In this document: positions 5,220 to 32,301 of the stretch, in pieces
Layout: every line of letters starts with the position of its first letter
Numbering within the stretch: the stretch's first letter is position 1
IMG/VR virus record: IMGVR_UViG_3300036795_000123
Coordinates: 1-52,734 of that record
Direction: 5' to 3' (one strand)
DNA length: 52,734 bases
From: a virus
Lineage: Duplodnaviria > Caudoviricetes
Translations under genes and position numbers: made by a program
The notes under the pieces: generated by a model
Database searches by the model: none
Told to the model about the DNA's origin: nothing
Seen by the model: the letters and a program-made list of their open reading frames with translations, nothing else

Positions 5220-5515
5220 GGCCTTCCGCATTCGTCGCAAGGGCCAATTATCAGGCCTCTACATTTTGGGCAATCGGGGCTACCCCATGGCTGTACTACT
5301 TCGACAACTTCAAACCCCGTACTGCGTACGAGTTTGACGGGTTTGCCTTTAGCTCTTCCCACCGCAATCGCCATGGGTCGCAAGCTTTCGGCTCGGGCCA
5401 TATCAGCTCCCACCATAGGCATCCAACCGGATGGTGTTTCAAAGGCTGGGATGCCTTCATCGTTTTCGTCTTTGTCGGCCATCACCCAGGCAAAAAGTTG
5501 CTCTATTTTTTGCAT
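5216..5515 (-). CDS. Hypothetical protein
   Basis: Coupled to the terL stop; DEGIPA motif; C-terminal CxxC pairs. Confidence 0.6.
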   Translation of the reverse strand: MQKIEQLFAWVMADKDENDEGIPAFETPSGWMPMVGADMARAESLRPMAIAVGRAKGKPVKLVRSTGFEVVEVVQPWGSPDCPKCRGLIIGPCDECGRP

Positions 5516-7047
5516 CACAAAACCTTCCACGCAGGTTGTCCGTAAAGAACGTCGACCGCCTGCGTTGTCATGTCGACCATATCGTCGTTTTGTCCCTTGG
5601 GAAAAGCCCCGAGCTCCGCGATATAGTCCCGAACCCATTCGTACAGGGACGGATGCGGAATGTAAATATTGTGCGCGTTGATGGCGGGAGATGCGGCCTC
5701 GGCGCGCTCTTCTTTGTCGCCCCGCGGCGTGTAGCTTTGAATGCCGGGAATTTCGTTTTGTAGGTGGTCCATGATCCCGGGGCCGTTCGCCTTGTCTTCT
5801 ACCCATTTCTCGAATGCGTTGGGCCATGCTGTAGAGACATCACGCACCATGTCACATGCGCCGTCAAAGCCCACGCGGGCGCGCGCGAGATGAACCAGGA
5901 AAGCAGCCGATGGCATTTTCGGAGCGTTATGCAGCCATACCCCGCCCACGACGTACGATCCCCGCTTGGTTTTCTTAAAGGTCATGTCCCACGATTGAAT
6001 AGCGCGGCGAAACTCTGCGGCCGCTGGGATAGCAACTTGCTCTATCTCGACGATTTCGCCGTCGTTGTTTGCCATCTTGATCGGGGGTGGCACCACGCCA
6101 TCGAAGTACCAGAAGCGCAGGTTGAATAGCTTGAATGTGCCGCCGCCGATGACCACCGGGTTTTGCTGGTAGATGGATTCCCAAGCCTCTAGCGTAACGG
6201 ATTCTTTAGTGGCCAGAGCCCATCCCTTGTCATAGCCCAGCTCGGGCCAGAGCGTATCCCCGACTTGGCGGGGGTCGTGGGTGGCTGTGGGGTCGATCTT
6301 CATGAGCGGGAAACGAAACTCCTCCCACTGATCTGCGTTGGGATTGTTTGCGGCCTCGATGATGCGCATGCCTGCGAAGTCATCCAAGCGCCAACGCGTC
6401 ATGATGAGTAGGACGAACGTTTCCTTCTGAGTACGTGAGCGAATCGAGTAGACCCATTCGTTTTCGAGTGTCTGCTTTTGCGCCTCGGAGCTGGCCCCTT
6501 TGAAGTTTTTCACGGGATCATCGATCAGGATACCGCCGGTGGCGCGTTTGCCCGTGATACCGCCCATGATACCGGCCGAGCTCATACCCCCTTTGTGGCC
6601 AGCGATTTTGATTAGCTTGTTATTTTTCTCAGAAATGTAGATCGGGAAAATCTCGTGGTACTCATCCGTGTCGATGTAATTCTGAATGGCCTTGGTGTTG
6701 ATGCCCGTGAGTTCGTCGGTATAGCTGGTGCTGATGTTCGATAGGTCGGGGTTGCGCCCGATGAACCAGGCCATGAACAATTGCGCCATGGTGGACTTGG
6801 CGTGTCCCGGTGGCATCGAAATGATGACGCGTTTTAGTTCGCCATCACCCACGCGCTGTAGCACTTTGATGAGATCAACGTGGAACCAGGGCAGCACCCA
6901 CGTCGGATGCATGTGATGCACGAAAGCCTTGAACGATTTTTGGCATAGCCCGCGGTATTCAATTTTTACTAGCTTCAATTCAAGTTTCGCTATTCTTATC
7001 TCGGCCTCTTCGATGGGTGACAACACTGCGTATTCCCCCTTGTGCAA
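5515..7047 (-). CDS. terL: Terminase large subunit (probable start GTG 7026)
   Basis: IISMPPGHAKS (Walker A), ITGKRA, LIDDP (Walker B), MTRW, YQQNP, QSWD, VEDKANG and DDMVD nuclease motifs. Confidence 0.95.
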   Translation of the reverse strand: MHKGEYAVLSPIEEAEIRIAKLELKLVKIEYRGLCQKSFKAFVHHMHPTWVLPWFHVDLIKVLQRVGDGELKRVIISMPPGHAKSTMAQLFMAWFIGRNPDLSNISTSYTDELTGINTKAIQNYIDTDEYHEIFPIYISEKNNKLIKIAGHKGGMSSAGIMGGITGKRATGGILIDDPVKNFKGASSEAQKQTLENEWVYSIRSRTQKETFVLLIMTRWRLDDFAGMRIIEAANNPNADQWEEFRFPLMKIDPTATHDPRQVGDTLWPELGYDKGWALATKESVTLEAWESIYQQNPVVIGGGTFKLFNLRFWYFDGVVPPPIKMANNDGEIVEIEQVAIPAAAEFRRAIQSWDMTFKKTKRGSYVVGGVWLHNAPKMPSAAFLVHLARARVGFDGACDMVRDVSTAWPNAFEKWVEDKANGPGIMDHLQNEIPGIQSYTPRGDKEERAEAASPAINAHNIYIPHPSLYEWVRDYIAELGAFPKGQNDDMVDMTTQAVDVLYGQPAWKVL

Positions 7048-10184: not shown

Positions 10185-10402
10185 GGGTTCATCACCTCCC
10201 ACATGCGTTTGGGTAATGTGCGCAAGTTGTAGTGGGTGCCTTTCTTGGTGGCTTTGTCCCACGCTCGACGCCAACGCACACACTCAGCTAAGTAAGCGGC
10301 CACCTTTAAGGTTTCTTTGGATGGCCCTATCGGGAAACTGAATGCCCCATACCCCCAATCGACAATACCTGCACGTGTTTCAAGAATTTCTTTTCTCATC
10401 AC
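10181..10402 (-). CDS. Hypothetical protein
   Basis: Coupled ORF. Confidence 0.55.
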   Translation of the reverse strand: MMRKEILETRAGIVDWGYGAFSFPIGPSKETLKVAAYLAECVRWRRAWDKATKKGTHYNLRTLPKRMWEVMNP

Positions 10403-10839
10403 TACCTCTTCTCAAAAATGTCTATGAAGCGCGCCACGATATCGCCGTCGCGCTGTAGGCCACCGCGCTTGACGATGACTTCCACGCGGTTCCCGTGAAT
10501 TTCTAGATCTGGTGTGCGCGGGAAGAGCGCCGGGTCGAGCAGCGCCAGGTGGTTGACCGTGGGGGTTTCCGTGCCGGTGAACACCGTGCGCGCCGCAGCC
10601 GGGGCAAAAACCAAACCACCTAGGCTATCATCCCGCACCGTCAAAAACCCGTCCCGGGTGGCTTGGTTCGCAGCGCTGTCCACGAGGTGGCACATGTCGG
10701 GCTCAAGTTCGCAGCGGTAGGTGACCGCCGGGGCCGGTGGTGGGAGCATGTGCGCGCACGCGCTAAGAGCGAGCAGAGGTAGAGCGATAGCTTTCATTTT
10801 GACTTTAACGATCCTTGTGTTGGAATTATTCCCGGTCAT
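10402..10839 (-). CDS. Putative lipoprotein (alternative start 10797)
   Basis: MKAIALPLLALSA-C lipobox. Confidence 0.65.
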   Translation of the reverse strand: MTGNNSNTRIVKVKMKAIALPLLALSACAHMLPPPAPAVTYRCELEPDMCHLVDSAANQATRDGFLTVRDDSLGGLVFAPAAARTVFTGTETPTVNHLALLDPALFPRTPDLEIHGNRVEVIVKRGGLQRDGDIVARFIDIFEKR

Positions 10840-11408
10840 GTGCGCACGAAACCAACATCTTTGAAGGCGTTCGCGAACCGAGCGATGGCCGCGTCGTTAT
10901 CTGTGCTGGGAGGGAGGTAGACCACCACCGGCGCGTGGGATGGGTTTTTGCTGGGCCCTTTGACGCTATCGAATCCGAAACGCTCGCGGGGCACCCAAAA
11001 AGGGAACGCTTGCGGGGGGGCCATGGGTAGGCATTGGCCAGTCTGCATAATCTCGATCGAGAATCCCACAAAGATGGCGTGGCGAAACTTCCCGACCGCC
11101 CATTCCCGCACGGTGCGTTTCCAGAAGAGCGCGGCCGATGACTCGCCGCCGATTTTGCCGCCAGGTGGGTTGATGAACACGGAATCTACCCGGGGCCATG
11201 TTCGTTCTAGAGCGTCTTTTTCCCAGTAGACGGTGGCGTTGACGCGCGATTCCCCGAATCCGTCGCTGGCCGGATCGAAGTCTATGGTGCCGCCTAGCAC
11301 CTCGGTGGCTTTCTCTATCAGCCACACGGGCGTGTACCATAGCGAGGTTTGCGACAGATGCTTCGCATTCATGTCATCGTCCGGGGTTTTTTGACAAGCT
11401 TGACGCAT
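10836..11408 (-). CDS. Phage Dam-like N6-adenine DNA methyltransferase (start 11372-11408)
   Basis: WYTP, IDFDPAS, DAL and VFINPPG motifs (NPPY variant). Confidence 0.8.
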   Translation of the reverse strand: MRQACQKTPDDDMNAKHLSQTSLWYTPVWLIEKATEVLGGTIDFDPASDGFGESRVNATVYWEKDALERTWPRVDSVFINPPGGKIGGESSAALFWKRTVREWAVGKFRHAIFVGFSIEIMQTGQCLPMAPPQAFPFWVPRERFGFDSVKGPSKNPSHAPVVVYLPPSTDNDAAIARFANAFKDVGFVRT

Positions 11409-11487
11409 AGTGTGAGGCCCTCTTTGACCGACGCCTATATCAGGCTGTTTTGCTGGTGTCACAGCCCTATGCGGTATAACTAGAGGC

Positions 11488-11784
11488 GTGGCACGATCGT
11501 GGTCCCCATGGAGTCGCGAGAAGTCTAGCAAAGCCCAGGAACTCGCTCGATTAGAGCGCGAGCTCCGCGGGCGCTGCGTGCCGCACTACGCCACGACCCC
11601 CTACTCTCGCCGCTACCAGGGAGCCCCCGACTTGCTTTTGCCTGCGTTGGGGGTTGCGCTATGGTGGTTTAGCGACCGGATCACTCGGCGGCAAGCCGCC
11701 GAACAGGCCCTTATTCGGGAGCGTGGGTGGCGCGTGTTGATACCGCAGACTTTCCAAGATGCATTACGGGAGATAGATCCTTGA
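11488..11784 (+). CDS. Degenerate VRR-NUC-like protein
   Basis: GAPDLLL...Q...I...GWRV layout, lacking the E-x-K motif. Confidence 0.4.
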   Translation: MARSWSPWSREKSSKAQELARLERELRGRCVPHYATTPYSRRYQGAPDLLLPALGVALWWFSDRITRRQAAEQALIRERGWRVLIPQTFQDALREIDP

Positions 11785-11945
11785 GTGATAAATTTTCTGG
11801 CCTTTATGCGTACCCTGGCACAACCCCCCCGGCCCCTCCGCCGCCACCTCCCGACGCTGCGGTTATCGAAAGCATGCAAGCCGAAATCAAAAAGCTGCGG
11901 CAAGCCGTTGAGAAGTTGACTCAACTGCTCAAGGAAAAACTTTGA
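11781..11945 (+). CDS. Small Pro-rich/coiled-coil protein
   Basis: Coupled between the upstream ORF and the portal. Confidence 0.45.
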   Translation: MSDKFSGLYAYPGTTPPAPPPPPPDAAVIESMQAEIKKLRQAVEKLTQLLKEKL

Positions 11946-14398
11946 TGCGCTCTTTAGCGGTGGCCGAGGTTATCGATTGGATGGATGACGCGTGGATGAA
12001 GAAATCCCGCGGTGGCCCTAAGCCGGCGGACGGTGGGGGCGTGTTCCCGCGTGCGCTAAGCACAGCCACCGTGCAGTACAACATGCGCCAAGTCCCGCAA
12101 CGGGGTATGGCCGAGATGTTGAACGCCTACCGCAGCAACCCGTGGCTGCACACGTGCGTGGACATTATCGGTCGCAAGTTCGGAGAAGTCCCGTGGAAGT
12201 TGATGGCGCGGCCGAATAAAACGACAGGCAAACGCGTCCCGATCGGGAAGTACGCACGTTTTAAGGGTGACGCGCGGTTTCGGTCGTTGAAAAAAGCGCT
12301 CGATACCGGTGAGCTCAAGGAAATCGAAAACCATCCGTTGCTCGATCTGTGGGAGCGTCCGAGCCCCGTGATGTCCGGTTTTTGTTTGCGCGATCTGTGG
12401 TGCAAGTACCACAAGATGCAAGGCGAGTCGTTCACGTACAAGCGACGTGACACAAATGGGATCGTGTACGAGCTCTGGATTTTGCCGCCCACCTGGATCT
12501 ACCGTGTCCCCACCGAAAACATGCCTTACTTCGATGTGAGCGTTATCGGCCGCACGATGCGTATCGCTGCGGAAGACATGATATGGATGAAGCACCCCGA
12601 GCTGCTTAACCCGTACACGCGTGGATCGGGACAGGGCGAATCGCTCGGCTCGTACATCGATACAGATCATTATGCGATGGAGTTTCAGAAAGCCTACTTC
12701 TACAACGATGCGCGGCCGAACCTCATGATCCACATGAAAGGCGCGGCAAAGGACACGGTAAAGGATTTCGAAAACAGGCTGGATAACGCCTTTCGGGGCC
12801 CGCTGCGATCACATCGCCCTTTCATTTACGACGGCCCGCAGCCGTTAGATGTCAAAGAGATCGACCTTTCCAAGGGAATCGATGCGGCAATCCCGCTGCT
12901 CAAAGCGGATCGTGACACATTCTTGAGTGTGTTCGGGATACCGCCAGAACTTGCCGGGGTACTTTCGAGTTCCAATCGAGCCACCATCACGGTGGCGGAA
13001 ACAATTCTCGCGCGTAACGTGACCGCGCCGCAGTGCGAGTTTGTCCTAGATGAGATCGACCGCCAGCTCGTGCCCGAGTTCGATCAAGGCGAAGGCAAGA
13101 TCCTCCTCAGCTACGACAACCCCGTGCCCGAGGATCAGGATTTCCAATTGACCGTGCTCGCCAAGGCCCCGTGGACGGCCGACATGGGTGAATGGCGCGA
13201 GCTCGCCGGGCTGCCATCCCGTGGCGACAAGGATAACTTCTACATGGTGCCGGTGGGCATGTCGCCTACGGACGATCCGAGCAAGCCTGTCATCCCGCTC
13301 GCGCCGCACAAGATCGGCGACGTGATTAAACCGGGGCAGACTTCCAACGATGTCATGGGCGAGAATGGGGCCCCCGAACCGGGATCTTTGAAGGACCCCT
13401 TAAGCGGCGTCGGCCCCACTACCGGTGGCGCGGGTGACGATGATGAAGAGGAGCCACCAGGCGGTGGTTCGGATGACACGGCTGCGGGCGTGGGCGAGGA
13501 TGGAGTTAACGGCGGCGGCTCAAAAAAAAAGTCCGGTGACTTAGGTATCACGGATTTTTACGCCGCGATAAGCAAGGCCGATGATGCGCCCAGCTACACC
13601 CGGGTAAAAGACGCGCGCACAAAACGCGTCATCGCCGCGGTGAAGCCCAAGGCCATCAACACCCAGATCGACCCCGTGTGGCAAGCTAAGGTCAAGGAAT
13701 GGGGCGATCGTGCTTTTGAAGATATGGGCGTCAATCCTGCGTTCGACATGTACAATGAGACGGTCAAGGACCACCTAGAAGATTTCTCATCCGATCGTAT
13801 CACCTGGGTGAATGACACCACGCGCGACTCCATAGCGAGCGCTCTCGGTAAGGGCATCGATGCGGGCGAGGGGATCGAGGATTTATCCCAGCGTATCAAA
13901 GACGTGTTCGCCGGCTGTGACAGCACGCGCGCGAAGTTAATAGCTCGCACGGAGGTCACGCGCTCCGCGAATTTCGCATCGTTGCAGGGCTACAAACAAA
14001 CGGGCCTCGTGAGCATGAAAAAATGGCTCGCGACGATGGATGACAAGGTGCGGGATGACCACGCGGAGCTCGGCGAACAAGAGCCTATCCCGATAGACGA
14101 TGACTTTGAGGTGGGTGACTACAAAGGTCAGGCCCCTGGTGATTTTGACGCACCCGAGCAGGATTGCAATTGTAGGTGCAGTATCACGCCCGTGGCTGAT
14201 GAAGCGCCGGGCGTGCAGCCCGAAGAATTGGAAGGCGATGACGATACCGAGAGCAAGGGCATGCGCCGTATGACGGATGAGGCGCGGTGGAAGCGCTTCG
14301 ATAGCGACGCCACGAGCTGGGAAAAGAGCGCGGTCAAGGCTCTTCGGAAGGCTTTTGCCGAGCAGGAAAGGGCTGCTCTAGCTGCTCTACGAGCCTAG
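11942..14398 (+). CDS. Portal protein fused to a MuF/SPP1 gp7-type head morphogenesis domain
   Basis: HPLLDLWERP, ELWILPP, FYNDARP, FGIPPELAG, NRAT (portal); acidic Gly-rich linker; RAKLIARTE, KKWLAT.DDKVRDDH, CNCRC (MuF). Confidence 0.92.
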   Translation: MMRSLAVAEVIDWMDDAWMKKSRGGPKPADGGGVFPRALSTATVQYNMRQVPQRGMAEMLNAYRSNPWLHTCVDIIGRKFGEVPWKLMARPNKTTGKRVPIGKYARFKGDARFRSLKKALDTGELKEIENHPLLDLWERPSPVMSGFCLRDLWCKYHKMQGESFTYKRRDTNGIVYELWILPPTWIYRVPTENMPYFDVSVIGRTMRIAAEDMIWMKHPELLNPYTRGSGQGESLGSYIDTDHYAMEFQKAYFYNDARPNLMIHMKGAAKDTVKDFENRLDNAFRGPLRSHRPFIYDGPQPLDVKEIDLSKGIDAAIPLLKADRDTFLSVFGIPPELAGVLSSSNRATITVAETILARNVTAPQCEFVLDEIDRQLVPEFDQGEGKILLSYDNPVPEDQDFQLTVLAKAPWTADMGEWRELAGLPSRGDKDNFYMVPVGMSPTDDPSKPVIPLAPHKIGDVIKPGQTSNDVMGENGAPEPGSLKDPLSGVGPTTGGAGDDDEEEPPGGGSDDTAAGVGEDGVNGGGSKKKSGDLGITDFYAAISKADDAPSYTRVKDARTKRVIAAVKPKAINTQIDPVWQAKVKEWGDRAFEDMGVNPAFDMYNETVKDHLEDFSSDRITWVNDTTRDSIASALGKGIDAGEGIEDLSQRIKDVFAGCDSTRAKLIARTEVTRSANFASLQGYKQTGLVSMKKWLATMDDKVRDDHAELGEQEPIPIDDDFEVGDYKGQAPGDFDAPEQDCNCRCSITPVADEAPGVQPEELEGDDDTESKGMRRMTDEARWKRFDSDATSWEKSAVKALRKAFAEQERAALAALRA

Positions 14399-14401
14399 CG
14401 T

Positions 14402-14596
14402 TTAGGCGAGCGAACGGTGGTCGATGCGAACGCCCATGCTGCGTACAAGTCCTGTAAGCGCTGTAAAGCGCCCTGGCCTACCTTCGGGTGTTTTCCTGAA
14501 CATGGCGTAGTACTGCCATGTCAATCTAGGTAATTCCAGGATGCGTTTCCACAACGGTCGGCGTCGGATGTTGGGCGGGAGCGTCACGGTGGCCAC
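14402..14596 (-). CDS. Hypothetical protein
   Basis: Last gene of the leftward cassette. Confidence 0.5.
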   Translation of the reverse strand: MATVTLPPNIRRRPLWKRILELPRLTWQYYAMFRKTPEGRPGRFTALTGLVRSMGVRIDHRSLA

Positions 14597-14793
14597 CGGT
14601 AGATCGAGTCATCGTGGCAGCGGTAACCTAGAACTTTGATGGCAGCGACACCACCTCTACTTGTGCATGTGTGCAAGGCTTGCATCACGCGGTGGTCGCT
14701 GATGTCCGTGTTTTCACCCATGAACAAACCCACGGCCCACCAGAAAGCAGCCGTCGCAAGGAAACTGAAGTACAGGAGGAAACTGTGCTTCAT
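14584..14793 (-). CDS. Small membrane-anchored protein
   Basis: N-terminal TM; C-x4-G...C pattern. Confidence 0.55.
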   Translation of the reverse strand: MKHSFLLYFSFLATAAFWWAVGLFMGENTDISDHRVMQALHTCTSRGGVAAIKVLGYRCHDDSIYRWPP

Positions 14794-15071
14794 GGTTTTA
14801 AGGCGCGCCCGGGATTCTTAGCACCACAGAGCGCACATTCCCAAGGATCTTCGATCTTAGTGCTCGGGAGCCACCGGCGTTGATGACCACGCATCCCGCA
14901 CATTTCTCGCGCGCCCCTCTTGTTAGCCTCTCTTAAAGCTTCATCGAGTAGATCCAATTCGATGGAGGTTTTTCTTTGTACATATCCCGCGTGATGCGCG
15001 CCCACGTCGTTGTCTAGATCAAGTTGATCTTGAAGTCGGGTCTTTAGTTTTTCTGCGGCGGGCGTGGTCAT
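14790..15071 (-). CDS. Hypothetical protein with Zn-ribbon
   Basis: C...GH...CALCG. Confidence 0.6.
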   Translation of the reverse strand: MTTPAAEKLKTRLQDQLDLDNDVGAHHAGYVQRKTSIELDLLDEALREANKRGAREMCGMRGHQRRWLPSTKIEDPWECALCGAKNPGRALKP

Positions 15072-15078
15072 TTTTTAG

Positions 15079-15309
15079 TTACCTCAACGCCTCGGCGAGC
15101 AACCATCGCACCGCTTCTGCGCGGCTCTTCATACCATGCGCGGTCGCGTATCGGTCAAGGGCTGCGACTAGCTCGGCGGGTAGCCGGGTGGTTTCGTTGA
15201 TGAACTTAGCGGAGGATGGTGGGCGTCCCGCGTTAGGACGTGTGCCGCCTCGATTGCCACAAATATGCACCTTGTGAAAAGTAGCACCGCAGTTTGCACA
15301 TGTATTCAT
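15079..15309 (-). CDS. Ribbon-helix-helix (CopG-like) DNA-binding protein
   Basis: RGGTRPNAGRP followed by TTRLPAELVAALDRYA...SRAEAVRWLL. Confidence 0.75.
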   Translation of the reverse strand: MNTCANCGATFHKVHICGNRGGTRPNAGRPPSSAKFINETTRLPAELVAALDRYATAHGMKSRAEAVRWLLAEALR

Positions 15310-15418
15310 CTGGTGCGCCGCATCTTCGACATGACCCAGAGTATGGACCAGAGTTTGAGCAACTGCGCGCCGCGTTGTCCGTCGAGCGCTATGCGGGCCC
15401 GGGGGCCGTTGGTGCACA

Positions 15419-15634
15419 TCACACACATAACGACCCCCAAGGGGATGCTAGGAGTTTTGCAGGCGCGCTATCTACCCAGACGCTACCGTCCCAATATTTT
15501 TTGTGGCCATTCCCATTTGTATTGGTGGCAATTGCCCTATGATGGGCATCTAAGTCTGGCAGATAGATGTCTCTGTCAAACGCACGGCGTGTCAGCCAAT
15601 TCTCGCTAAAATAAACAACATCGTAAAGCATCAC
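15419..15634 (-). CDS. Hypothetical protein
   Basis: Coupled ORF. Confidence 0.5.
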   Translation of the reverse strand: MMLYDVVYFSENWLTRRAFDRDIYLPDLDAHHRAIATNTNGNGHKKYWDGSVWVDSAPAKLLASPWGSLCV

Positions 15635-16008
15635 GGGCTCGCTTTCGTGGTTAAGTCTTCTAATCGGCGAACTACTTTCACGCAGCGGGCCATGTCCTGC
15701 GCGTGCAACGCGGCGAACGCTTCGATAAGCAATTCGTTGTTCACCAGCATCACGCTCTCGCCGTGGGCCACCTCGGCCTCGGCCATCAACTCAAAGATGC
15801 TGCGGCCGATGAAATGGAACTCGTAAAGAGACATCCGACGTGCGTCTTCTTTTGCTGCGCGGGCGTCGGGGGGTGTTGTAACCAATGTGTCGTAAAAATT
15901 TTTAGCGTCGGGCCAGTTGCCACGAAACAATTCTACCACATCTGTATCACTGTATCTCTCACGAATTACCCATTCTTGGCCTTCTTTTCCGATGCTTGCG
16001 CTACTCAT
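15631..16008 (-). CDS. Hypothetical protein
   Basis: GGAG RBS before ATG 16008. Confidence 0.6.
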   Translation of the reverse strand: MSSASIGKEGQEWVIRERYSDTDVVELFRGNWPDAKNFYDTLVTTPPDARAAKEDARRMSLYEFHFIGRSIFELMAEAEVAHGESVMLVNNELLIEAFAALHAQDMARCVKVVRRLEDLTTKASP

Positions 16009-16063
16009 GGGACTACTCCGTTTGTTTGTTTTTGCCGTTATTCTAGTGATGACGTGGGCCTTT

Positions 16064-16285
16064 TTAGTAACCAAGGCCGATTTCTTCTTTGACTCGGCGG
16101 CGAGCGGCAACTGCTTCTGTTGTGAATTGCCCAGCAAAGCACATGATTTCGAGCGCAGCCCCTACTAAGATGTTCGCATCTTGTAAGTCCCCGGGGTTGT
16201 GCGCGGCGTTTAGGCGCACATTTTTGTAATTATCGATGGATGATTCGAGGATCTGGTTGGCGTATGCTTGGCTCATGTTGTTCAT
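16064..16285 (-). CDS. Hypothetical protein, first gene of the leftward cassette
   Basis: GGAG RBS downstream of a sigma70-like promoter. Confidence 0.6.
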   Translation of the reverse strand: MNNMSQAYANQILESSIDNYKNVRLNAAHNPGDLQDANILVGAALEIMCFAGQFTTEAVAARRRVKEEIGLGY

Positions 16286-16472: not shown

Positions 16473-17759
16473 ATGCCTGATCGTGTCTCAAGGGCCAGTT
16501 TTGCGAAAAGTAGTTCAAAAGACGTAGCCCTTTCAAAAGCTGCAGATCTGACACTCGACCCGGGCGAGGTGGGGGTTTCGTCGCGCACGGCCCCCTTCAT
16601 TATCAGCACCGAGGCGGTCGATCGTGATGGTGACACGCTAGCCCTAGATGGCTGGGATCTCGCCGATTATAAAAACAACCCCGTCATTCTCTTCGACCAC
16701 AACCCCACGTGCCCTATCGGCAAAAGCTTGTCTGTTTTCGTCGAAGACGATGCCTTGCGCGCCGTGGCGTGGTTCATCGAAAAAGATGCGCTCCCCGACA
16801 ACGTCCCGGACATTTTCAAGCTGATCGAAGCGGACGTTCTGCGCACCGCGAGCGTTACTTTCCTCCCCCTCGAATTCACCCAGGCCCTAGACCGCGCATC
16901 CAACTCCCCGTGGGGCATCCCCCCGATGAATTTCAAGCGTCAGAAGTTGCTTGAATGGTCGGTGGTGTCGGTGCCCAGTAACCAAGAGGCCTTGCGCCAG
17001 GCGAAAAGTCTCAAGGGGGTAGACTGGCGCGGCTACAATCAGTGGATCGAGCGCTCACTCGATGAAGCGGCTTACCCCCTCGCTGCCCCGCGCGTGGAGT
17101 ACGAGAAAACTCACGCCGTGGTGAAGAGTTTTCTCACTACCGCAAAACCGAAAGTCGCTCCCGTCGCGGGGGCTACGGACAACTCCTCCATGAAAACAAG
17201 CAAGGCGGGCAAAGTGCTGAACAAAGACAATTTGAACCGGTTGAAGGCGGCGATGAAGCATGCCGATACGGCCGAGGATTGCCACACGAAAGCTCTTGAG
17301 CTGCACGACAAGGGTTTGAAGCATCTCGCCTACTGCGCCGATCACATGAAAGCCATCATGGATTCGCACGACAGTGCGACCGATAAGGATGGCGATGGTG
17401 ATGGTGATGAGGGTGGCGACTCGGGAGATTCCGACAACACGGGCAAAAAAGACGCGGGGCAACAGATCGTGGATGAAGGCTCGGGGGCCGGTAACGGCAA
17501 GCCGGTAGGCGAGGTCAAGCCGGATCTGCCCGATTCGGAAGACTACTACCAGCAATATGGCAAGGCCGCCGGGGCCGGGAAAAAGGACGCGGACGTGCTT
17601 GCCCGAGCCAAGGCCATCATCCGCGGCACACCGGCTGCCCCGGCCGCGCCGGTGGTCGAACAAGAGCCGTACACCGAGGCCGAACTAGCGGAAGGCCTTC
17701 AGATCGCGCTTGAGCGTCAACATCAAAAACATCTGCGCACCTTGCGCGGCCAAGATTAA
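16473..17759 (+). CDS. HK97-family prohead protease with long C-terminal (scaffold-like) extension
   Basis: STEAVDRDGD, YKNNPVILFDH, PIGK, SVTF, LLEWSVVSVPSN; KAGKVLN..N motif. Confidence 0.93.
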   Translation: MPDRVSRASFAKSSSKDVALSKAADLTLDPGEVGVSSRTAPFIISTEAVDRDGDTLALDGWDLADYKNNPVILFDHNPTCPIGKSLSVFVEDDALRAVAWFIEKDALPDNVPDIFKLIEADVLRTASVTFLPLEFTQALDRASNSPWGIPPMNFKRQKLLEWSVVSVPSNQEALRQAKSLKGVDWRGYNQWIERSLDEAAYPLAAPRVEYEKTHAVVKSFLTTAKPKVAPVAGATDNSSMKTSKAGKVLNKDNLNRLKAAMKHADTAEDCHTKALELHDKGLKHLAYCADHMKAIMDSHDSATDKDGDGDGDEGGDSGDSDNTGKKDAGQQIVDEGSGAGNGKPVGEVKPDLPDSEDYYQQYGKAAGAGKKDADVLARAKAIIRGTPAAPAAPVVEQEPYTEAELAEGLQIALERQHQKHLRTLRGQD

Positions 17760-17771
17760 GGGAAATCAACC

Positions 17772-19133
17772 ATGGCAGCCGTAATGGAAAAAGCGCCGCG
17801 CGCTGAACAGATCGCGGATTACTTGGAAGAGCATCTCGGCAAGGACATTGCCGCGAAAATGAAGGCTTCGACCGCGCTCGCGCGAGAGCAAAACAAGGCG
17901 GAGGGAATCGACGCTTTCACGGCGAGTGCCGAGCGCACCAATGCGTCGGGCATCACGCTTACCGAGCGCCGTAAGGCCTTCGCGCAAAAGTTCAAGTCGC
18001 AGGATTCGCGCGATTCGCAGATGGAGGATACCGAGCTGGGTTACTTCATCCGCTCGGTAGCGAAGACGGGTCACGCGTTCACCCCGCAAAACTTCGAAGC
18101 GGCCATGATGGGTTTCGATCCATCGAAGGTGTGCATCGAAGCGTGGCGCAAACATAACAAGTATCTCGGCGACAAGGGCTACCACCAGAAAGCCCTGGGC
18201 GAGATCGCCTTCATCGATGGCGGCGCGATCGTCCCGCCTCAATTCGTCACTGAGGTGATCGAGTTCCTTCGCGCCAAGGTGGTCATCCGCGCCTTGGGTG
18301 CGCGGGTTATCCCGATGCCCAAGGGCAACATCACGATGCCCTTCGCAAGCACGGGCATCGTGGCGTCGACCGTCACAGAAAACACCGTCACGCCATCGTC
18401 GCAACCCACATTCAACACGTTCCAGCTTATCGCCAAAAAGCTGCGTGCGTTGACCCCGATCAGCAACGAATTGCTTAGCGACGCGTCCCCCGAGGCCGAT
18501 CAGTTCGTTCAACAGGACATGGTCGCCGCGATCCGCGTGTTGGAAGATTTCAACATGCTGCGCGGATCGGGTTACGCTGGCAGCATGCGTGGCCTGCGCA
18601 ACTTGGCGCAAACCAACTTGCTCGCCACCAATGCGGCGGGCACCGCCGGTAGTTCGACCACGAGCGAGATCATCAAAGATCTTATGCTTATGTTGTCGGG
18701 CGTGGAGGGGCTGAACATCACCATCGAAAACGGTGGTTGGGTGTTAGCTCCCCGGGTGAAGAACGCGTTGATGTCGTTGCGGGATGGCATCGGCAACTTC
18801 TATTTCAAAACAGAGATGTTGCAGGGTCGCCTATGGGGCCACAATTGGGGCTCGACCACCGCGCAACCCGTCAATCTTGATACCACCAGCGGCGCGCTGT
18901 CCGGGAAAGAGTCGGAAGTGCTCTTCGCGGACTTCGACAAGGTCATCATCGGCGATACTCAAGAGCTGATGATCGAGCCCTTCCGCGGTGGCGCGTACTA
19001 CGACGGGTCGACGATTCAATCCGGTATCTCGAATGATCAGACCGTGATCGTGGGTCAGACCCGTTCGGACATCAACGAGCGGTACCGCGGCGCATCCATC
19101 GCAAACCTAACTCGCGTTACGTGGGGAGCCTAA
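17772..19133 (+). CDS. Major capsid protein, HK97 fold
   Basis: KAL...GGAIVP, KKL.AL..IS.ELL.D, LRDG.GNF, FADF; N-terminal delta-like domain. Confidence 0.95.
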   Translation: MAAVMEKAPRAEQIADYLEEHLGKDIAAKMKASTALAREQNKAEGIDAFTASAERTNASGITLTERRKAFAQKFKSQDSRDSQMEDTELGYFIRSVAKTGHAFTPQNFEAAMMGFDPSKVCIEAWRKHNKYLGDKGYHQKALGEIAFIDGGAIVPPQFVTEVIEFLRAKVVIRALGARVIPMPKGNITMPFASTGIVASTVTENTVTPSSQPTFNTFQLIAKKLRALTPISNELLSDASPEADQFVQQDMVAAIRVLEDFNMLRGSGYAGSMRGLRNLAQTNLLATNAAGTAGSSTTSEIIKDLMLMLSGVEGLNITIENGGWVLAPRVKNALMSLRDGIGNFYFKTEMLQGRLWGHNWGSTTAQPVNLDTTSGALSGKESEVLFADFDKVIIGDTQELMIEPFRGGAYYDGSTIQSGISNDQTVIVGQTRSDINERYRGASIANLTRVTWGA

Positions 19134-19139
19134 AAGCCA

Positions 19140-19652
19140 ATGAAACAAACAGAGATGTTCAACTTTGGCGCTTTGACGCGTCCGTATCCGGCCCTGATCG
19201 TCACCGCGGCTACCAGTGGTGTCGCGATTACGGCCGGGGACGTTTTAGACCGCTCCCTTATCGGTTACGCCGGTTCGGCGGCACTGGTGGTTGAAGGCTC
19301 GTATACCATCGCATCCGGGGCCGCAGGGGATGCGATCGTGGTGGCGGGCACGGTCAGCACCTCGGCATCGCTCTCGAGCGGCGCACTGGTTACGCCGTCG
19401 ACGTTGAAGACATTCTCGGTTTCGGTACCCTGGGTGAGCAGCGCGACGCTCCGCCGGTACTGCATCGCCGTGCCGCTTGGTTTCAACTCCGCGAACGAGT
19501 ATATCCAGCTCAGTTCGTTGACGTTGACCGCCACCTCGGCCGGCGGGACGTACTCGGCACTGACGGCGCGCGCGGTGTGGGCCACCGGTGGCGAGTATTC
19601 CACGCCAGATCCGCTTTTCAATTCCGCGGGCTATCTCAGCTACGGTACATGA
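19140..19652 (+). CDS. Putative capsid decoration/cement protein
   Basis: Directly follows the MCP; Ala/Thr/Ser-rich beta protein. Confidence 0.55.
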   Translation: MKQTEMFNFGALTRPYPALIVTAATSGVAITAGDVLDRSLIGYAGSAALVVEGSYTIASGAAGDAIVVAGTVSTSASLSSGALVTPSTLKTFSVSVPWVSSATLRRYCIAVPLGFNSANEYIQLSSLTLTATSAGGTYSALTARAVWATGGEYSTPDPLFNSAGYLSYGT

Positions 19653-19667
19653 TTTAGGGAGTTCGGT

Positions 19668-20048
19668 ATGGCAGACGAAAAAAAGAACCTTGAGAAGTTT
19701 AACAAGAAACGGATCTCGTGCCTGTTCATTAAGGACTTCGAACAGTACAACGCCGGCGAATCGGCTGTGTTCGATGCCCAGGTGGCTCACGCGTACAAAA
19801 AGCGCGGGGCCGTCGAGTTCAATGAGCACGAGGTTCAGAATGACAGTAACCTCATGGGACTTCTTTCGGGGCAAAACAGCGGTGGGTTTGGTGTGCCGGA
19901 GCCCATGTCGGATGAGAAAGTTTCAGCGTTGATCGACAAGCTGCTAGACGAAAAACTCAAACCCTTGTTTGAGCTGCTCGACAAGTCCGACAAGGATAAG
20001 GTCAAGCCGGAAGACAAGGAACCTCTCAAGGGTGCGGTTAAGAAGTAG
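19668..20048 (+). CDS. Hypothetical head-associated protein
   Basis: F.KD...YNAGE.A.F motif; position in module. Confidence 0.55.
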   Translation: MADEKKNLEKFNKKRISCLFIKDFEQYNAGESAVFDAQVAHAYKKRGAVEFNEHEVQNDSNLMGLLSGQNSGGFGVPEPMSDEKVSALIDKLLDEKLKPLFELLDKSDKDKVKPEDKEPLKGAVKK

Positions 20049-20067
20049 GGGGTCAACGAGGTGATGC

Positions 20068-20751
20068 GTGGCGAGCGATCCGAGAATGTTGACAACAGTA
20101 ACGCGCTTGCAGGCGGAGCTGAAAAACACGGCTAAAGTTATGGCCGCATCGGTGGAACTCGCCGCGATCATCGTTGAAGTTTCCTGGGATCTGGCATCAC
20201 GCTGTAACCGAGAGTTCTACTACGCCAGCAACGTGGTAGAATATGTCGCCGGTTTCGCTTCGACGAATCTTCAAGTCAGCAAGCATTGTCCGATCGATGT
20301 CACGCCGCCCGCCACCGTCGCGGTTACGTTCGATGGTGGGCCGATAGATCCGAACGTTTACACGATCCCAGATCCTGGGTTGGGTTTCATCTACAACCGA
20401 ACGGGGTGGTACTGGACAGCATCGCTGTTGCCCAACGTGCAGCAAGATCCGTTCGCGGGCTACGAGAATCGGCTCTATCAAATAACCTATTCGGGTGGGT
20501 GGGTGACGCCGCAGCAAGCCCTGGATAACCCAGCCGATCCTATTTTGAGTGTGCGTACGTTGCCTTTCGATATCGAGCGCGCGTGCTTACTGTGCTGCGT
20601 GATGTGGTACCGCATGCAAGCCCAGAATCCGCTGTTCAAGAGCGAAAGGCTGATGTCCTATTCCTACACCCTCACGGAAAGCATGGAGATACCTTTCGTG
20701 GAGGGGGTCGTGGCCCGCCGCCGGCGCACGGGGATGAGCGGGAGCGCCTAA
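20068..20751 (+). CDS. Head-tail adaptor
   Basis: ITYSGGW...LPFDIERAC...KSERLMSYSYT. Confidence 0.8.
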   Translation: MASDPRMLTTVTRLQAELKNTAKVMAASVELAAIIVEVSWDLASRCNREFYYASNVVEYVAGFASTNLQVSKHCPIDVTPPATVAVTFDGGPIDPNVYTIPDPGLGFIYNRTGWYWTASLLPNVQQDPFAGYENRLYQITYSGGWVTPQQALDNPADPILSVRTLPFDIERACLLCCVMWYRMQAQNPLFKSERLMSYSYTLTESMEIPFVEGVVARRRRTGMSGSA

Positions 20752-21075
20752 ATGGACTTGGAACACCTCCTTACGGACACGATCACGATCTCGGTGCGTA
20801 CCGGGCAGGATGCGCACGCGCAGTCGACCTACGCCGCACAAGTCACCGGGGTGGCGGCGCGCGTGGAAACTGCTTATGCCTTGAGCCTGACGCTGCATTC
20901 CACGGCGTTGGATTTCACGCATGCCATTTGCCTAGAGACGCCTCTTAACCCCAACGACCGGGTGTGGCTCGCTGGCGATGACATCACGTCCACGGACAAG
21001 GCGCGCATGGTGAAACGCTCCGCGTCCGCTTACACGGGGGACGATTCCTACACCCTCTACATGGCGTATCTGTAA
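20752..21075 (+). CDS. Head closure/stopper protein
   Basis: Size, position and ARVE motif. Confidence 0.7.
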   Translation: MDLEHLLTDTITISVRTGQDAHAQSTYAAQVTGVAARVETAYALSLTLHSTALDFTHAICLETPLNPNDRVWLAGDDITSTDKARMVKRSASAYTGDDSYTLYMAYL

Positions 21076-21464
21076 TGGCACCGCTTAAGGGCAAGGAATG
21101 GTATCTCGCGCGCGTCAAGAAATTCACCGAGGATTTCCCCGGGGTCGTGGGCGATGCCATGTTTGAAGAGGCGACTAACATCGCTCGGGCGTCTCAAGAG
21201 CAATGTCCCGTTTACGTCGGTAAGCGATACCTCGGCGGTACGTTGCGCGCGAGTTTTTTCATGACCCAATCCGGGACAAAGGAAAATCCCAAGGTCATGC
21301 TAGGCTACGGCACGAAATATGCGGTGTACGTACATGAGAAAGTGGACGATCATCATCCGGTGGGTAAGGCTAAGTTCCTAGAAGATCCGATCATCGCCGC
21401 GCGCCCGATGTGGCTGCGGAACGTTTGGGCGCGGGCGAACAAAGCGCGGCTAGGTGGCAAGTAG
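21075..21464 (+). CDS. HK97 gp10-like neck protein
   Basis: CPV..GTLRAS, YAVYVHE, KAKFLE. Confidence 0.85.
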   Translation: MAPLKGKEWYLARVKKFTEDFPGVVGDAMFEEATNIARASQEQCPVYVGKRYLGGTLRASFFMTQSGTKENPKVMLGYGTKYAVYVHEKVDDHHPVGKAKFLEDPIIAARPMWLRNVWARANKARLGGK

Positions 21465-21932
21465 ATGCCATCCTTCCTACCGGCCGATGACGTGGCGGCA
21501 CAGATAGCTGGTGCGGGGCTCGGTTGGGCCCTGGCCACGAATCTGTTCGTTTCCGATGTGGCACCCTCCTATCAGACCGATACGAGCGCTACGGGCACAC
21601 CCAGCGCCTCGGTGTTCGTGCTGCTCGCGGGTGGTTACGACATCCCGACCCGCTATCAGCTCGACACCTACGCCAACGCGCCGAGCGCCACCCAGGCCCG
21701 TGAGCCGCGCGTCATGATCTACGTCCGCAGCCCCCGGCAACAGTACAACACGGGGATGGTATCGGCTCGCGCCGTGAAGGATGCGTTACACGATCAGCCT
21801 TTGCAAATAGGATCGTCCGGATCGTATTATGACGCGTGTCGAATCGTCGACGCGGAGCCCACGCTGTTATCCGAAACGGACAACGGCGAATTTTTGTTTT
21901 CGCTTAACTGTCACCTTTACCTAGACGCGTGA
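21465..21932 (+). CDS. Tail terminator-like protein
   Basis: P.V.IYVRS...A.AVKDALH...FSLN; position in module. Confidence 0.7.
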   Translation: MPSFLPADDVAAQIAGAGLGWALATNLFVSDVAPSYQTDTSATGTPSASVFVLLAGGYDIPTRYQLDTYANAPSATQAREPRVMIYVRSPRQQYNTGMVSARAVKDALHDQPLQIGSSGSYYDACRIVDAEPTLLSETDNGEFLFSLNCHLYLDA

Positions 21933-21942
21933 GGTTCATACC

Positions 21943-22308
21943 ATGGCGGCAACACTTCTGACTCCCATACAAGGCGGCCCGTTCGGCGCGGCGGCAACTT
22001 TAGCTACCACCACCCCGGATGCTGTAAATGGAAATGCCTACGCTAATCCGGGTGGCACCCCCACGGTGTTGCAGATAACCAACGGATCGGGGTCGCCTAT
22101 CACCGTGACGTTCACGTACCCGAACACGCCTTATAACGGTGGGGGGAATCTCGCGGCGACGGCCCCCACGGTGGCCGCATCTGCTACAAAGTTTTGGCTG
22201 TTGGAACCATCGTTGTTCAACAACGCGAATGGCCAAGCCGTGTTCACCGTATCATCTGCGACCACGGTCACGTGCGCCGTGTACCAGTTCGTTCGCTCGC
22301 TTCCCTAA
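21943..22308 (+). CDS. Virion structural protein (small beta-sandwich)
   Basis: NGN..AN.G...L.ITNGSGSPITVT. Confidence 0.55.
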   Translation: MAATLLTPIQGGPFGAAATLATTTPDAVNGNAYANPGGTPTVLQITNGSGSPITVTFTYPNTPYNGGGNLAATAPTVAASATKFWLLEPSLFNNANGQAVFTVSSATTVTCAVYQFVRSLP

Positions 22309-22334
22309 ACGAATGATGTGAAAGGAGTAGGACC

Positions 22335-22754
22335 ATGGCAAAGGCTTTAGGCACTATATCCGTAACACACGTGGGCACCGATGGCTCGACGTGGACGTTG
22401 CTCGGCAAGGTCAAAAAGATGGCCACGCCGATCAAGAATGAGCCGGTGGACAGCACCGATAACGATGACGGTGGGGCAAAGAGTAACCTCTACGGCGACG
22501 TGAGTTATGATGTTGACGCCACGTGCAACTACGATCCCGCAGATGCGGGACAGGCCGTCTTGTCGAACGGTGCGTTGAATAAAACGACCGTTTACTTCCG
22601 TCACCGGCCGCGCGGTACCGGTACGGGCCTACCGCAGATTTCGGGGCAGGCCGTGCTCGCAACGGCGGACATCTTCACCACCGAGCACGACAAGGTTGCG
22701 GAGTTCGCAATCAAAGGTTCGTCAACGGGACTGTGGACGCAAAGCAATCAGTAA
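22335..22754 (+). CDS. Tail tube (major tail) protein
   Basis: EPVDSTDND, YDPADAGQ; position before the chaperones. Confidence 0.8.
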   Translation: MAKALGTISVTHVGTDGSTWTLLGKVKKMATPIKNEPVDSTDNDDGGAKSNLYGDVSYDVDATCNYDPADAGQAVLSNGALNKTTVYFRHRPRGTGTGLPQISGQAVLATADIFTTEHDKVAEFAIKGSSTGLWTQSNQ

Positions 22755-22766
22755 CGGAGGGACTTT

Positions 22767-23183
22767 ATGCCACACGTATCAGAGATAACGATCCCGATCG
22801 CCACGCCGCAAGTATTGAAGGTGACCTTCAACAACACGGCGTACAAGAAAATCAAAGAGCTAACGGGCGTTAGCGTGTTCGAATTTCAGGACATGACGAA
22901 AATTCAGGATCCGATACTGCTAACGGCGGTCTTATTTGCCGGTACGCGTAAGCACCACCACAACCTGGATTTAGAAAACCTGAATGATTGGTTAGATGAA
23001 GTCGACACCGCGGACTTGTTCAAAGTGTACGGCGAAATCATTCAGGCCCTGGGTGCGAGTTTTTTGGACCCGGACAAAAGGGCAAAGTTTCTAACCGAGG
23101 TGAAGGTAGCGAAAGCGAAGGTGAAGGTGGATGCGAAGAAAGTCCTGACGAACAGTGGGACCGATACGTCATCGGCGGCTTAG
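22767..23183 (+). CDS. Tail assembly chaperone G
   Basis: Between tail tube and TMP; slippery T TTT TTG at 23060-23066. Confidence 0.8.
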   Translation: MPHVSEITIPIATPQVLKVTFNNTAYKKIKELTGVSVFEFQDMTKIQDPILLTAVLFAGTRKHHHNLDLENLNDWLDEVDTADLFKVYGEIIQALGASFLDPDKRAKFLTEVKVAKAKVKVDAKKVLTNSGTDTSSAA

Positions 23184-23428
23184 AATCGGGCGTTACGTGG
23201 GCTGACTTTTGGGAGCATGACTACTACGAGGTGTCTCTCTACATACGGGCCTACAACGCACGCATGATGAAGCTGTTAGAAATCGGAGCGTTTCAGGTGA
23301 TGCATATTTACCGCGCGTTCACCGGCGATAGCGTTTCGATCGATCAGTTGCTTGGGCGTGGGACGCGCATCGATCTTGTAAACGACCCTATGGCGGCGAA
23401 TAGGCTGCGGGAGGTGGCGGATGGGTGA
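23060..23428 (+). CDS. Tail assembly chaperone GT extension via -1 frameshift
   Basis: The -1 frame is open from the slippery heptamer to 23428 (...GVTWADFWEHDYYEV...). Confidence 0.75.
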   Translation, partial: FFGPGQKGKVSNRGEGSESEGEGGCEESPDEQWDRYVIGGLESGVTWADFWEHDYYEVSLYIRAYNARMMKLLEIGAFQVMHIYRAFTGDSVSIDQLLGRGTRIDLVNDPMAANRLREVADG

Positions 23429-26129: not shown

Positions 26130-26133
26130 CCTC

Positions 26134-27672: not shown

Positions 27673-27675
27673 TCG

Positions 27676-29070: not shown

Positions 29071-29922
29071 ATGGCATCGCAGGCCCCGCCGGATGGATGG
29101 ACAGTAACGACGGGCACGTGGAACACGGGCATAGGCCAGTCCACGACGCAAGCGTTGAACGCAGCGAGCTCGGTGAATATCACGGCGGCGGGGATCGTGT
29201 TCGTCGGGCCCTGGATCCCTCTCAGCTCTTACAACCCGTACCCGCCGGGCTCTTTGACCACGACAACGTACCAGCAAACATACACGCCAAGCATTTTTGT
29301 TTATGGCGACAACGCCTCCAACAACGTGTCCGTCACTTTCGCATACTACGGAGCAAGCCGAATTTCGCCCCTCGCCACGCCTCTTTCTTTGATGACGGGA
29401 GCCCCCGCAAACCTAAATGTGTGGAGCAAGTATTCAAAATACATTGTGAATAACTTGCATGCCGTGTGGGGGAGGATTGAAATCACATCTAACGTGGGGC
29501 ACACGGGGAATTTCTACATTGGCGGATCGTCCGTGCTCGCGAGCGCACCCGCTTTCACAGCGACCGGATCCGCACCAATAACCCACGGCGTTAATACGGC
29601 TGTGTCTATGACCACCTTATCCGGGAATCTTGTGGGGTTATCCGGCGGTGATATTTTATTGAGCGACTCGGGCTTTTGGGGTTTTTCTGTTTACATGTCA
29701 TGGAGCGTAACGCAAACGTCGTGGACCGTGGATATTTTCAATGTTACAACTGGTGGCGCAGTGGGTGGCGGAGGTCCTGTAACCTTTGCCGGACAATTTG
29801 CTTCATGGTCATGTGCGGCGCTCGTGCAACTCAACAACCCGCAGTCTTTGCTTACGTTGCGACTTAACCCGGCTTCGTCCGGGACTTGCTCTATTGTTTG
29901 GGGTGGTACTTACTTGCGTTGA
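29071..29922 (+). CDS. Tail tip/receptor-binding protein
   Basis: PPDGW carbohydrate-binding-like start; beta-rich. Confidence 0.55.
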   Translation: MASQAPPDGWTVTTGTWNTGIGQSTTQALNAASSVNITAAGIVFVGPWIPLSSYNPYPPGSLTTTTYQQTYTPSIFVYGDNASNNVSVTFAYYGASRISPLATPLSLMTGAPANLNVWSKYSKYIVNNLHAVWGRIEITSNVGHTGNFYIGGSSVLASAPAFTATGSAPITHGVNTAVSMTTLSGNLVGLSGGDILLSDSGFWGFSVYMSWSVTQTSWTVDIFNVTTGGAVGGGGPVTFAGQFASWSCAALVQLNNPQSLLTLRLNPASSGTCSIVWGGTYLR

Positions 29923-29936
29923 GGAGAAGAAAAAAC

Positions 29937-30401: not shown

Positions 30402-30402
30402 G

Positions 30403-31632: not shown

Positions 31633-31647
31633 AACCAAAAGGAGATC

Positions 31648-32292: not shown

Positions 32293-32301
32293 AAGCGACC
32301 C

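Follow-up and report, generated by a model that had tools for sequence, protein, structure and literature searches.

Can a single run of nine adenines let one phage gene specify two proteins? The question is raised by the portal-MuF gene of a phage (Duplodnaviria; Caudoviricetes) recorded in IMG/VR as IMGVR_UViG_3300036795_000123, all 52,734 nucleotides of which were analysed and are hereafter called the window. The record is that of a complete phage of 52,734 bp, with direct terminal repeats and a G+C content of 56%, and its DNA is present in one soil-metagenome run (X1). An initial annotation of the window had singled out a run of nine A (hereafter A9) at the junction of the portal and MuF parts of this gene, flanked by stops in both shifted frames, and had suggested that slippage there yields a short portal next to a portal-MuF fusion. 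The reading that I put forward, tentatively and well short of an even chance, is that A9 is a selected transcriptional slippage site resembling that of dnaX, which would set the ratio of plain portal to portal-MuF, and so the number of MuF cargo domains under the portal.

The gene, taken from the list of open reading frames (ORFs), lies on the plus strand at 11942–14398, and encodes 818 amino acids if counted from TTG 11942, or 817 from ATG 11945; the latter product is 100% identical to a database protein, P0001, whose numbering is that of the ORF minus 1. Pfam identifies a Phage_portal domain (PF04860) at residues 123–382 (12308–13087, plus strand; 103.9 bits for a cut-off of 39.1, E = 1.3e-29), and a Phage_Mu_F domain (PF04233) at residues 630–748 (13829–14185, plus strand; 62 bits for a cut-off of 29.6, E = 1.1e-16). 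Both domains are thus above the Pfam cut-offs, with MuF C-terminal to the portal in a single ORF, as in other portal-MuF fusions, and the family phrog_2662, labeled ‘portal protein’, spans residues 45–753 of the fusion (E = 3.6e-99). An AlphaFold model computed with 15 aligned relatives as input (mean pLDDT, the per-residue confidence score, of 67.7) predicts the portal fold with confidence as far as residue ∼447, followed by P0001 residues 448–546 with a pLDDT below 50. These correspond to a disordered and largely acidic linker of about 100 residues (ORF residues ∼449–547; 13286–13582, plus strand), which is poorly conserved in the alignment of relatives. The first MuF helix, residues 537–543 in P0001 numbering, opens a confident helical MuF module, which extends overall from about residue 538 to the C-terminus. 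The gene is therefore a one-frame fusion of a portal, a disordered tail, and a MuF internal head protein similar to SPP1 gp7.

The run occupies 13522–13530 on the plus strand, within TCA AAA AAA AAG (S527 K528 K529 K530), and is the longest A run of the window; it constitutes the candidate tract for slippage by RNA polymerase. These codons also hold the heptamer A_AAA_AAG (13525–13531, plus strand), which, with the phase counted from the ORF start, is in the X_XXY_YYZ register of a candidate −1 ribosomal shift site. In the frame of the gene, the sequence at the run, TCA AAA AAA AAG TCC GGT GAC TTA GGT, is translated as S K K K S G D L G. In the −1 frame, GTC CGG TGA leads to a stop two sense codons past the run (TGA, 13537–13539, plus strand), where transcripts with ten A's or ribosomes shifted by −1 would terminate with a 532-residue product, counted from TTG, ending in ...SKKKVR. 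The +1 frame reads AGT CCG GTG ACT TAG, with three further sense codons after the shifted AGT before the stop (TAG, 13542–13544, plus strand), where transcripts with 8 or 11 A's would terminate as ...SKK(K)SPVT. After any such frame change, MuF has no start codon near the seam. The nine A's and the heptamer within these codons, the two stops, and the product sizes of about 532 and 818 residues are all as the initial annotation had given them.

The run lies 8 residues upstream of the first MuF helix, at the C-terminal end of the disordered linker, and comparison with related proteins agrees with this placement. The closest database proteins, P0002 (67% identity), P0003 (61%), P0004 (59%) and P0005 (47%), are all in-frame portal-MuF fusions of 793–828 amino acids. 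All three of the closest, P0002 to P0004, possess KKK at the matching position of the linker, giving, with the window, the alignment pattern N-x-x-x-x-KKK, while the linker on both sides of this motif varies among the four proteins in sequence and length; P0005 is without KKK. A second group of relatives keeps the portal, at 51–56% identity, and carries a different C-terminal part: in P0006 and P0011 an ADP-ribosyltransferase-like domain takes the place of MuF, and P0009 is a portal only. The BLASTP match of P0006 to the window protein covers residues 13–528, ending inside KKK, and the free-standing MuF protein P0077 aligns only downstream, to residues 563–807 (47% identity), which places the A run at the point where the C-terminal modules were joined. 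MuF also occurs free-standing, in P0077 and P0078, whose contigs equal those of P0006 and P0009, respectively, in length. Pfam, AlphaFold and the BLASTP boundary thus concur with the initial annotation that the run closes the portal tail just ahead of MuF, and, as judged from these alignments, A9 marks a module seam. The same comparisons suggest that the portal serves as a carrier for differing cargo modules joined at one seam.

Two features of this second group can be noted separately. The domain that replaces MuF in P0006, P0011 and a metagenomic locus (L004, 2920–5355) is similar to the ADP-ribosyltransferase exoenzyme family PF03496. P0009 (560 amino acids) and P0078 (227 amino acids) are each encoded on a contig of length 5672; P0009 runs past the portal into a sequence resembling the N-terminus of MuF and ends in ...GKKKV, and P0078 begins at the conserved DPVW motif. 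The pair may be the halves of a fusion that was broken close to a further Lys run, or two separate genes.

For the layout of the run there are precedents in both Thermus and E. coli. In the relevant passages of Baranov 2005 (PMC1088944), Thermus dnaX is described as possessing an A9 at which transcripts with other than 9+3n A's reach a nearby stop, with 50% of short product, and nine is given as the length at which selection against A/T runs shows in many bacteria; the corresponding passages of Atkins 2016 (PMC5009743) report stops in both non-zero frames and a 1:1 ratio of the products. As in Thermus thermophilus dnaX (tau/gamma), the portal-MuF gene has a sense-strand A9 inside one long ORF, a long product that is the templated one, and near stops in both other frames. 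In Thermus, according to these sources, every non-3n transcript leads to a short product devoid of the C-terminal part. The differences are that the window encodes a portal-MuF protein rather than a clamp-loader subunit, that the run is located about 65% through the gene, compared to seven-eighths, and that for the window the two products are a prediction. E. coli dnaX is similar in having A_AAA_AAG in the same phase, with a −1 stop almost at once. The parallels drawn by the initial annotation, to the Thermus A9 slippage layout and to the E. coli heptamer, are consistent with passages of both articles (PMC1088944; PMC5009743).

By analogy with Thermus, the host RNA polymerase would slip on the T9 template and A9 transcript, producing mRNAs with 8, 9, 10, 11 and further numbers of A's. 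Those with 9 or 12 would encode the full portal-MuF of 817/818 amino acids, and the others would meet TGA 13537 or TAG 13542 within 2–4 codons. Such truncation would leave a plain but whole portal of about 531–534 residues, with its tail and without MuF; in dodecamers that mix both forms, the MuF domains inside the head would number fewer than twelve. A −1 ribosomal slip on A_AAA_AAG would contribute further ...SKKKVR product, presumably as a minor route, since the stimulators of such a shift are missing (see below). If slippage occurs, transcriptional slippage on A9 is more likely than a stimulated ribosomal −1 frameshift of the dnaX type. A PHROGs scan of 10 large ORFs gave no RNA polymerase, indicating that the run would be read by enzymes of the host; an RNA polymerase of the phage's own would slip more readily.

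Other phage systems show that fewer than twelve MuF domains would be a sensible outcome. In SPP1, it is the portal that carries a small number of copies of the MuF protein gp7 into the procapsid, as described in passages of PMC6316719, which makes a sub-stoichiometric MuF load biologically sensible. The portal gp6 and gp7 of SPP1 thus provide the very result that the slippage model would give, portal-bound MuF in few copies, but there gp7 is low in copy number because it binds as a separate protein, not because a covalent fusion is diluted by truncated subunits. Constitutive portal-MuF fusions, such as the members of phrog_2662 and those of Microbacterium phages of subclusters EA3, EA5 and EA8 and cluster EB, have the same domain order in one ORF, and the passages of PMC7302621 on the latter do not mention recoding; the window differs from them in its A9 and flanking stops at the seam. 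The tail chaperones of the lambda G/GT type are likewise two proteins made from a phage structural gene, with a common N-terminus and a set ratio. There, however, the shift gives the long product and the zero frame the short one, whereas here the zero frame gives the long product. In the window the portal and MuF are in one frame, and the G/GT-type layout, in which the zero frame stops just past the slip site and the next domain follows out of frame with no start codon of its own, is absent. The portal gp29 of phage Mu shows another route to a plain portal, as its C-terminal extension is likewise absent from the mature particle, by proteolysis after assembly rather than by recoding: passages of PMC11915804 report that gp29 lacks its last 124 residues in the virion, which is attributed to cleavage by protease I.

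The literature searched contained no case of recoding in a portal gene, and returned only tail-chaperone frameshifts and unrelated matters; the word ‘portal’ does not occur in the first 300,000 of the 449,034 characters of the Atkins 2016 review (PMC5009743). If the proposal is correct, the portal-MuF gene would therefore provide a recoding event of a kind not described in that literature, and would extend the Thermus dnaX design, with a short product by slippage and a templated long one, to bacterial viruses. The KKK at the seam would be the protein shadow of a nucleotide signal. It would also represent a way to keep the copies of a covalently linked internal head or ejection protein under twelve in each particle, and would bear on the open question of how MuF/gp7-type proteins, and fused toxin or enzyme cargo, are loaded into capsids. 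If the site is not real, it would instead serve as a caution that Lys-rich module seams can yield dnaX-like patterns by chance.

The probability of the proposal differs between its parts. That two products arise by the slippage route above trace level, and are tolerated or used, has in my analysis a little less than an even chance; that the slippage layout is selected is somewhat more doubtful. From the layout and its precedents I infer a useful slippage rate in the host, a ratio of two products, and selection of the layout. The suggestion of the initial annotation that both a short portal and a portal-MuF fusion are made is thus upheld in part: the anatomy of the site, its position at the seam, and the SPP1 precedent all fit, but stimulators are absent and most fused relatives have no slippery run.

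A number of observations weigh against a slippage site, and are set out here and in the next paragraphs together with the alternatives on which they bear. The E. coli dnaX site possesses a Shine-Dalgarno-like stimulator about 10 nt upstream of the site of the shift. No such element is present at this spacing in the window, where the nearest GGAG (13502–13505) is separated from the heptamer by 19 nt. Downstream, no stable stem-loop or pseudoknot was found 5–8 nt from the heptamer. The small hairpin that the initial annotation had described directly past the run does exist (13532–13556, plus strand, starting 1 nt after the heptamer); it is, however, no more stable than shuffled sequences, and is unsupported as a stimulator, as the 40 nt at 13531–13570 fold with −8.3 kcal/mol (z = −0.29), a stability matched by 65 of 200 shuffles. 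An imperfect GC-rich hairpin ending 1 nt upstream of the run (13480–13520, plus strand; −17.8 kcal/mol, z = −1.63, with 15 of 200 shuffles as good) is weak and of doubtful relevance. Rfam has no match in 13300–13800, and no promoter-like or terminator-like site is found on the plus strand around the run. There are thus no frameshift stimulators at the site, and both hairpins are in the range of shuffles. In these respects the site is unlike that of E. coli dnaX. A site of the E. coli type also involves a host that reads AAA and AAG with a single tRNA-Lys(UUU); the phage itself has no tRNA genes, and about half of bacteria have a single tRNA-Lys, as stated in a passage of PMC5009743. For transcriptional slippage, passages of a reporter study with the E. 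coli polymerase (Koscielniak 2018, PMC6260861) report little slippage on A runs, with none below eight A's, and a bias to T runs. Reverse transcriptase is itself reported to produce indels at motifs of this kind (PMC5737552).

The first alternative is that the run is incidental, with a Lys-rich flexible linker in which SKKK happens to be written TCA AAA AAA AAG and stops that are near by chance. Slippage would then be unselected noise, and harmless because the truncated product is a whole portal. The codon usage of the phage lends itself to this, as AAA and AAG are used about equally throughout (339 versus 329). The number of A9/T9 runs in the window is 2, compared to 0.53 expected, and at least two are obtained in 11 of 100 dinucleotide shuffles; the second is in another ORF (42080–42088, minus strand). 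Two runs of nine are within chance, and the A9 run alone is not beyond it. Unselected A_AAA_AAG sites are, moreover, tolerated in weakly expressed E. coli genes, according to a passage of PMC5009743. The flanking stops are rarer and count for a slippage site: of the codon positions of this gene, 1.6% have stops as close in both shifted frames, and the figure over 54 long ORFs is 1.8%.

The joint occurrence of these features was assessed by synonymous recoding, in which the peptide GVNGGGSKKKSGDLGITDFYAAISK was held fixed and its codons redrawn with the usage either of the whole phage or of this gene. A run of at least nine was obtained in 14% of recodings with phage-wide usage and in 5% with the gene's own, and both stops within 5 codons in 7–9%, frequencies in keeping with an incidental run. 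The two together, however, were obtained in 1.0% and 0.4%, respectively. A9 depends on the use of TCA for Ser (9.1% of Ser codons), and the +1 stop on that of TTA, which is rare at 8.3% of the codons for Leu phage-wide. The joint figure of 0.4–1.0% is suggestive of slippage and speaks against an incidental run, although all of these chance statistics are post hoc, the tests having been picked after the feature was singled out by eye. Against an incidental run there is further the position of A9, at the seam and nowhere else in a 2.4-kb gene with 54 Lys codons, in which KKK occurs only once, at that same place. So is the retention of KKK in all three of the closest relatives while the linker around it changes. 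Baranov 2005 also argues, in a passage of PMC1088944, that a GC-rich genome is unlikely to contain long A/T runs in the absence of selection for them. On balance I regard an incidental run as unlikely, though a serious contender.

More distant relatives add to the case for incidental Lys codons. Of 80 IMG/VR loci with 21–38% identity to the portal-MuF protein, 58 encode portal and MuF as a single reading frame; in L038 the two frames differ, and the remaining loci have no MuF match or run off the end of the locus. An in-phase A_AAA_AAN is present in the linker of 11 of the 58 in-frame fusions, with shifted frames of 5–22 codons, which are not notably short. Dereplication at 90% left 47 fusion genes, the window included, and 39 of these have no A/T run of at least seven in the linker (8 do); runs reaching nine are found only in the window and L030. 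Over the linkers as a whole, such runs of at least seven are about seven times denser than in the domains (14 in 13.7 kb versus 12 in 78.5 kb). The linkers are also richer in Lys (9.7% versus 5.7%) without over-use of AAA, as shown by comparing genes with themselves (249 observed versus 239.9 expected, z = 1.1). Judging from these sequences, a Lys-rich seam is a general feature of the proteins, most fusion lineages do not have such a run, and portal-MuF fusions work without a slip site. The initial annotation had looked to conserved A runs at the junction of related fusions to substantiate the site; at the protein level KKK is present in all three closest relatives and absent from P0005, and 39 of the 47 fusion genes have no linker run of seven or more.

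The A9 of L030 (CTT AAA AAA AAA GAT) is in the same seam, and was considered as an independent recurrence. It was rejected, as this phage, at 43% GC, has 7 distinct A runs of at least eight in 30 kb and writes KK as AAAAAA throughout, so that its A9 is uninformative at the nucleotide level. The L030 protein, used as a query, found only itself.

Genes in which portal and MuF are split were also inspected. The split relatives are L038, L090, L107 and the pairs P0009/P0078 and P0006/P0077; L090 and L107 have ATGA/GTGA overlaps, and in L038 the ATG is in the overlap. Since both split and fused arrangements exist, both forms of the protein are viable. The unfused loci comprised 23 of the first set, of which 18 had a readable portal stop and 5 ran beyond the end of the locus, and 77 of a second set, from the clade of P0047. 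No A run of at least seven just before the portal stop was found in the 18 readable stops and 77 loci, nor was the layout of a portal stop right after A9 or A10 with MuF out of frame found in the same loci. Shorter runs near portal stops are A6 in L039, A6 in L070 (just downstream of the stop), A6 in L118 (about 30 nt upstream), C6 in L057 and G6 in L132.

For the close relatives, conservation of the slippage seam was judged from proteins, and a run in their DNA is a candidate feature. A scan of IMG/VR for their DNA gave no match with the single protein, and two MuF-only loci with the alignment; a genome scan for close relatives gave only four distant loci in metagenome-assembled genomes (26–31% identity). 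No close relative was found in the GenBank phage collection, where the 258 matching records each have less than 60% identity and cover less than 80% of the query; in two records, GBK2 and MW202897, the annotation shows ordinary fused or separate genes. Separately, I considered whether a compensated frameshift relative to P0003 accounts for the divergent segment that follows KKK in P0004, and this was unsupported (P = 0.55 for the +1 frame, 0.88 for the other).

The second alternative is a protein-level motif, where the conserved N-G-G-x-x-K-K-K patch that closes the portal module would be, for example, either a prohead-protease site that frees the C-terminal cargo, MuF or in relatives an ADP-ribosyltransferase domain, or a basic patch that touches DNA, with the A run as a shadow of its codons. 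Support comes from the relatives: a basic KK(K/R) patch seems to close the portal module whatever follows, being common to the window and P0002–P0004, present as GKKR in P0006, where another domain follows, and as KKK in the seam of the distant fusions L030 and L034. This also counts against a nucleotide signal. In addition, the window has a likely prohead protease at 16473–17759 (phrog_80, E = 1e-13, with a weak Peptidase_S78 match of 19.1 bits, under the cut-off of 21), and the processing of Mu gp29 described above offers a parallel. Cleavage by the phage's protease is nevertheless putative, and the patch is not universal even among the closer relatives. P0005 has no KKK, and P0011 and L004, in the same clade, have GGNLPKPG and no KK at the aligned place; L004, a locus of the P0011 type and the only match of the metagenome scan, has no A run there either. 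The synonymous choices that give A9 and both stops would be left unexplained, and a motif of this sort is compatible with slippage also occurring. As the sole explanation it is decidedly unlikely; incidental Lys codons and a protein-level motif, taken together, come close to an even chance.

As a third alternative, A9 could be a hot spot for replication slippage, so that the population contains A8, A9 and A10 genomes, with fused and unfused genotypes. Runs of this kind are likely to be hypermutable through replication slippage (Baranov 2005, in a passage of PMC1088944), and a one-base change would indeed give a portal ending 2–4 codons later. In the Logan assembly of run X1, compared at 80% likeness, a contig of 52,636 nt over the gene, also with A9, has 0 differences, 0 gaps and a depth of 10.6; the absence of indels there is weak evidence, as these are contigs and not reads, and contigs drop rare variants. 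MuF would be without a start codon near the seam in the unfused genotypes, and P0002 to P0005 (4 of 4) are in frame, as is the window. A genotypic switch is thus very improbable.

The last alternative, that the true run is A8 or A10 and that portal and MuF are separate or frameshift-dependent genes, is the most improbable of all: homopolymers are error-prone and contigs rather than reads were inspected, but the window and the Logan contig agree on A9 (though the latter, probably from the same sample, is not independent support), the frame is continuous in P0002–P0005, from other contigs, and MuF has no start codon of its own near the seam. As far as can be told, the length of A9 is not an assembly slip, a second assembler agreeing and the frame being continuous in four relatives.

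Returning to the window, the portal-MuF gene is set in an unusual gene order. The minus strand encodes the large terminase, and the portal-MuF gene stands alone on the plus strand, with blocks of minus-strand ORFs on either side; the protease-like, capsid and tail genes begin 2 kb beyond it. The blocks concerned are 5515–7047 (minus), 10402–11924 (minus), 11942–14398 (plus), 14402–16137 (minus) and 16473–33057 (plus). At least three genes similar to DNA methyltransferases are present (352–1944, plus; 10836–11531, minus; 39462–40409, minus), one with a ParB-like N-terminal part.

The T9 at 42080–42088 is the only other run of nine in the phage. On the minus strand it forms an A9 at codons 3–5 (CAA AAA AAA ATC) of an ORF of 111 amino acids (41760–42095, minus), which starts 3 nt past the stop codon of the preceding ORF, and whose C-terminus resembles Sigma70_r4 (23.7 bits, just below the cut-off of 24.1). 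Slippage there would knock out the protein, or the run may aid the initiation of translation.

Among the distant relatives, P0047 (988 amino acids), together with P0037, P0039 and P0045, forms a second portal clade, with 32–34% identity and long C-terminal extensions. In P0047, domains of the 2H-phosphoesterase type (PF02834, PF13563) are located between portal and MuF, and this middle part is matched in none of the 77 related loci. In L070 (1591–3816), and also in L074, the portal homology is in two in-frame pieces separated by an insert of about 1.1 kb (381 amino acids), with a weak LAGLIDADG-like match (21 bits, for a cut-off of 22.5), and P0056 is a portal with PF14528. From their sequences, the inserts of L070, L074 and P0056 look like inteins or homing-endonuclease inserts.

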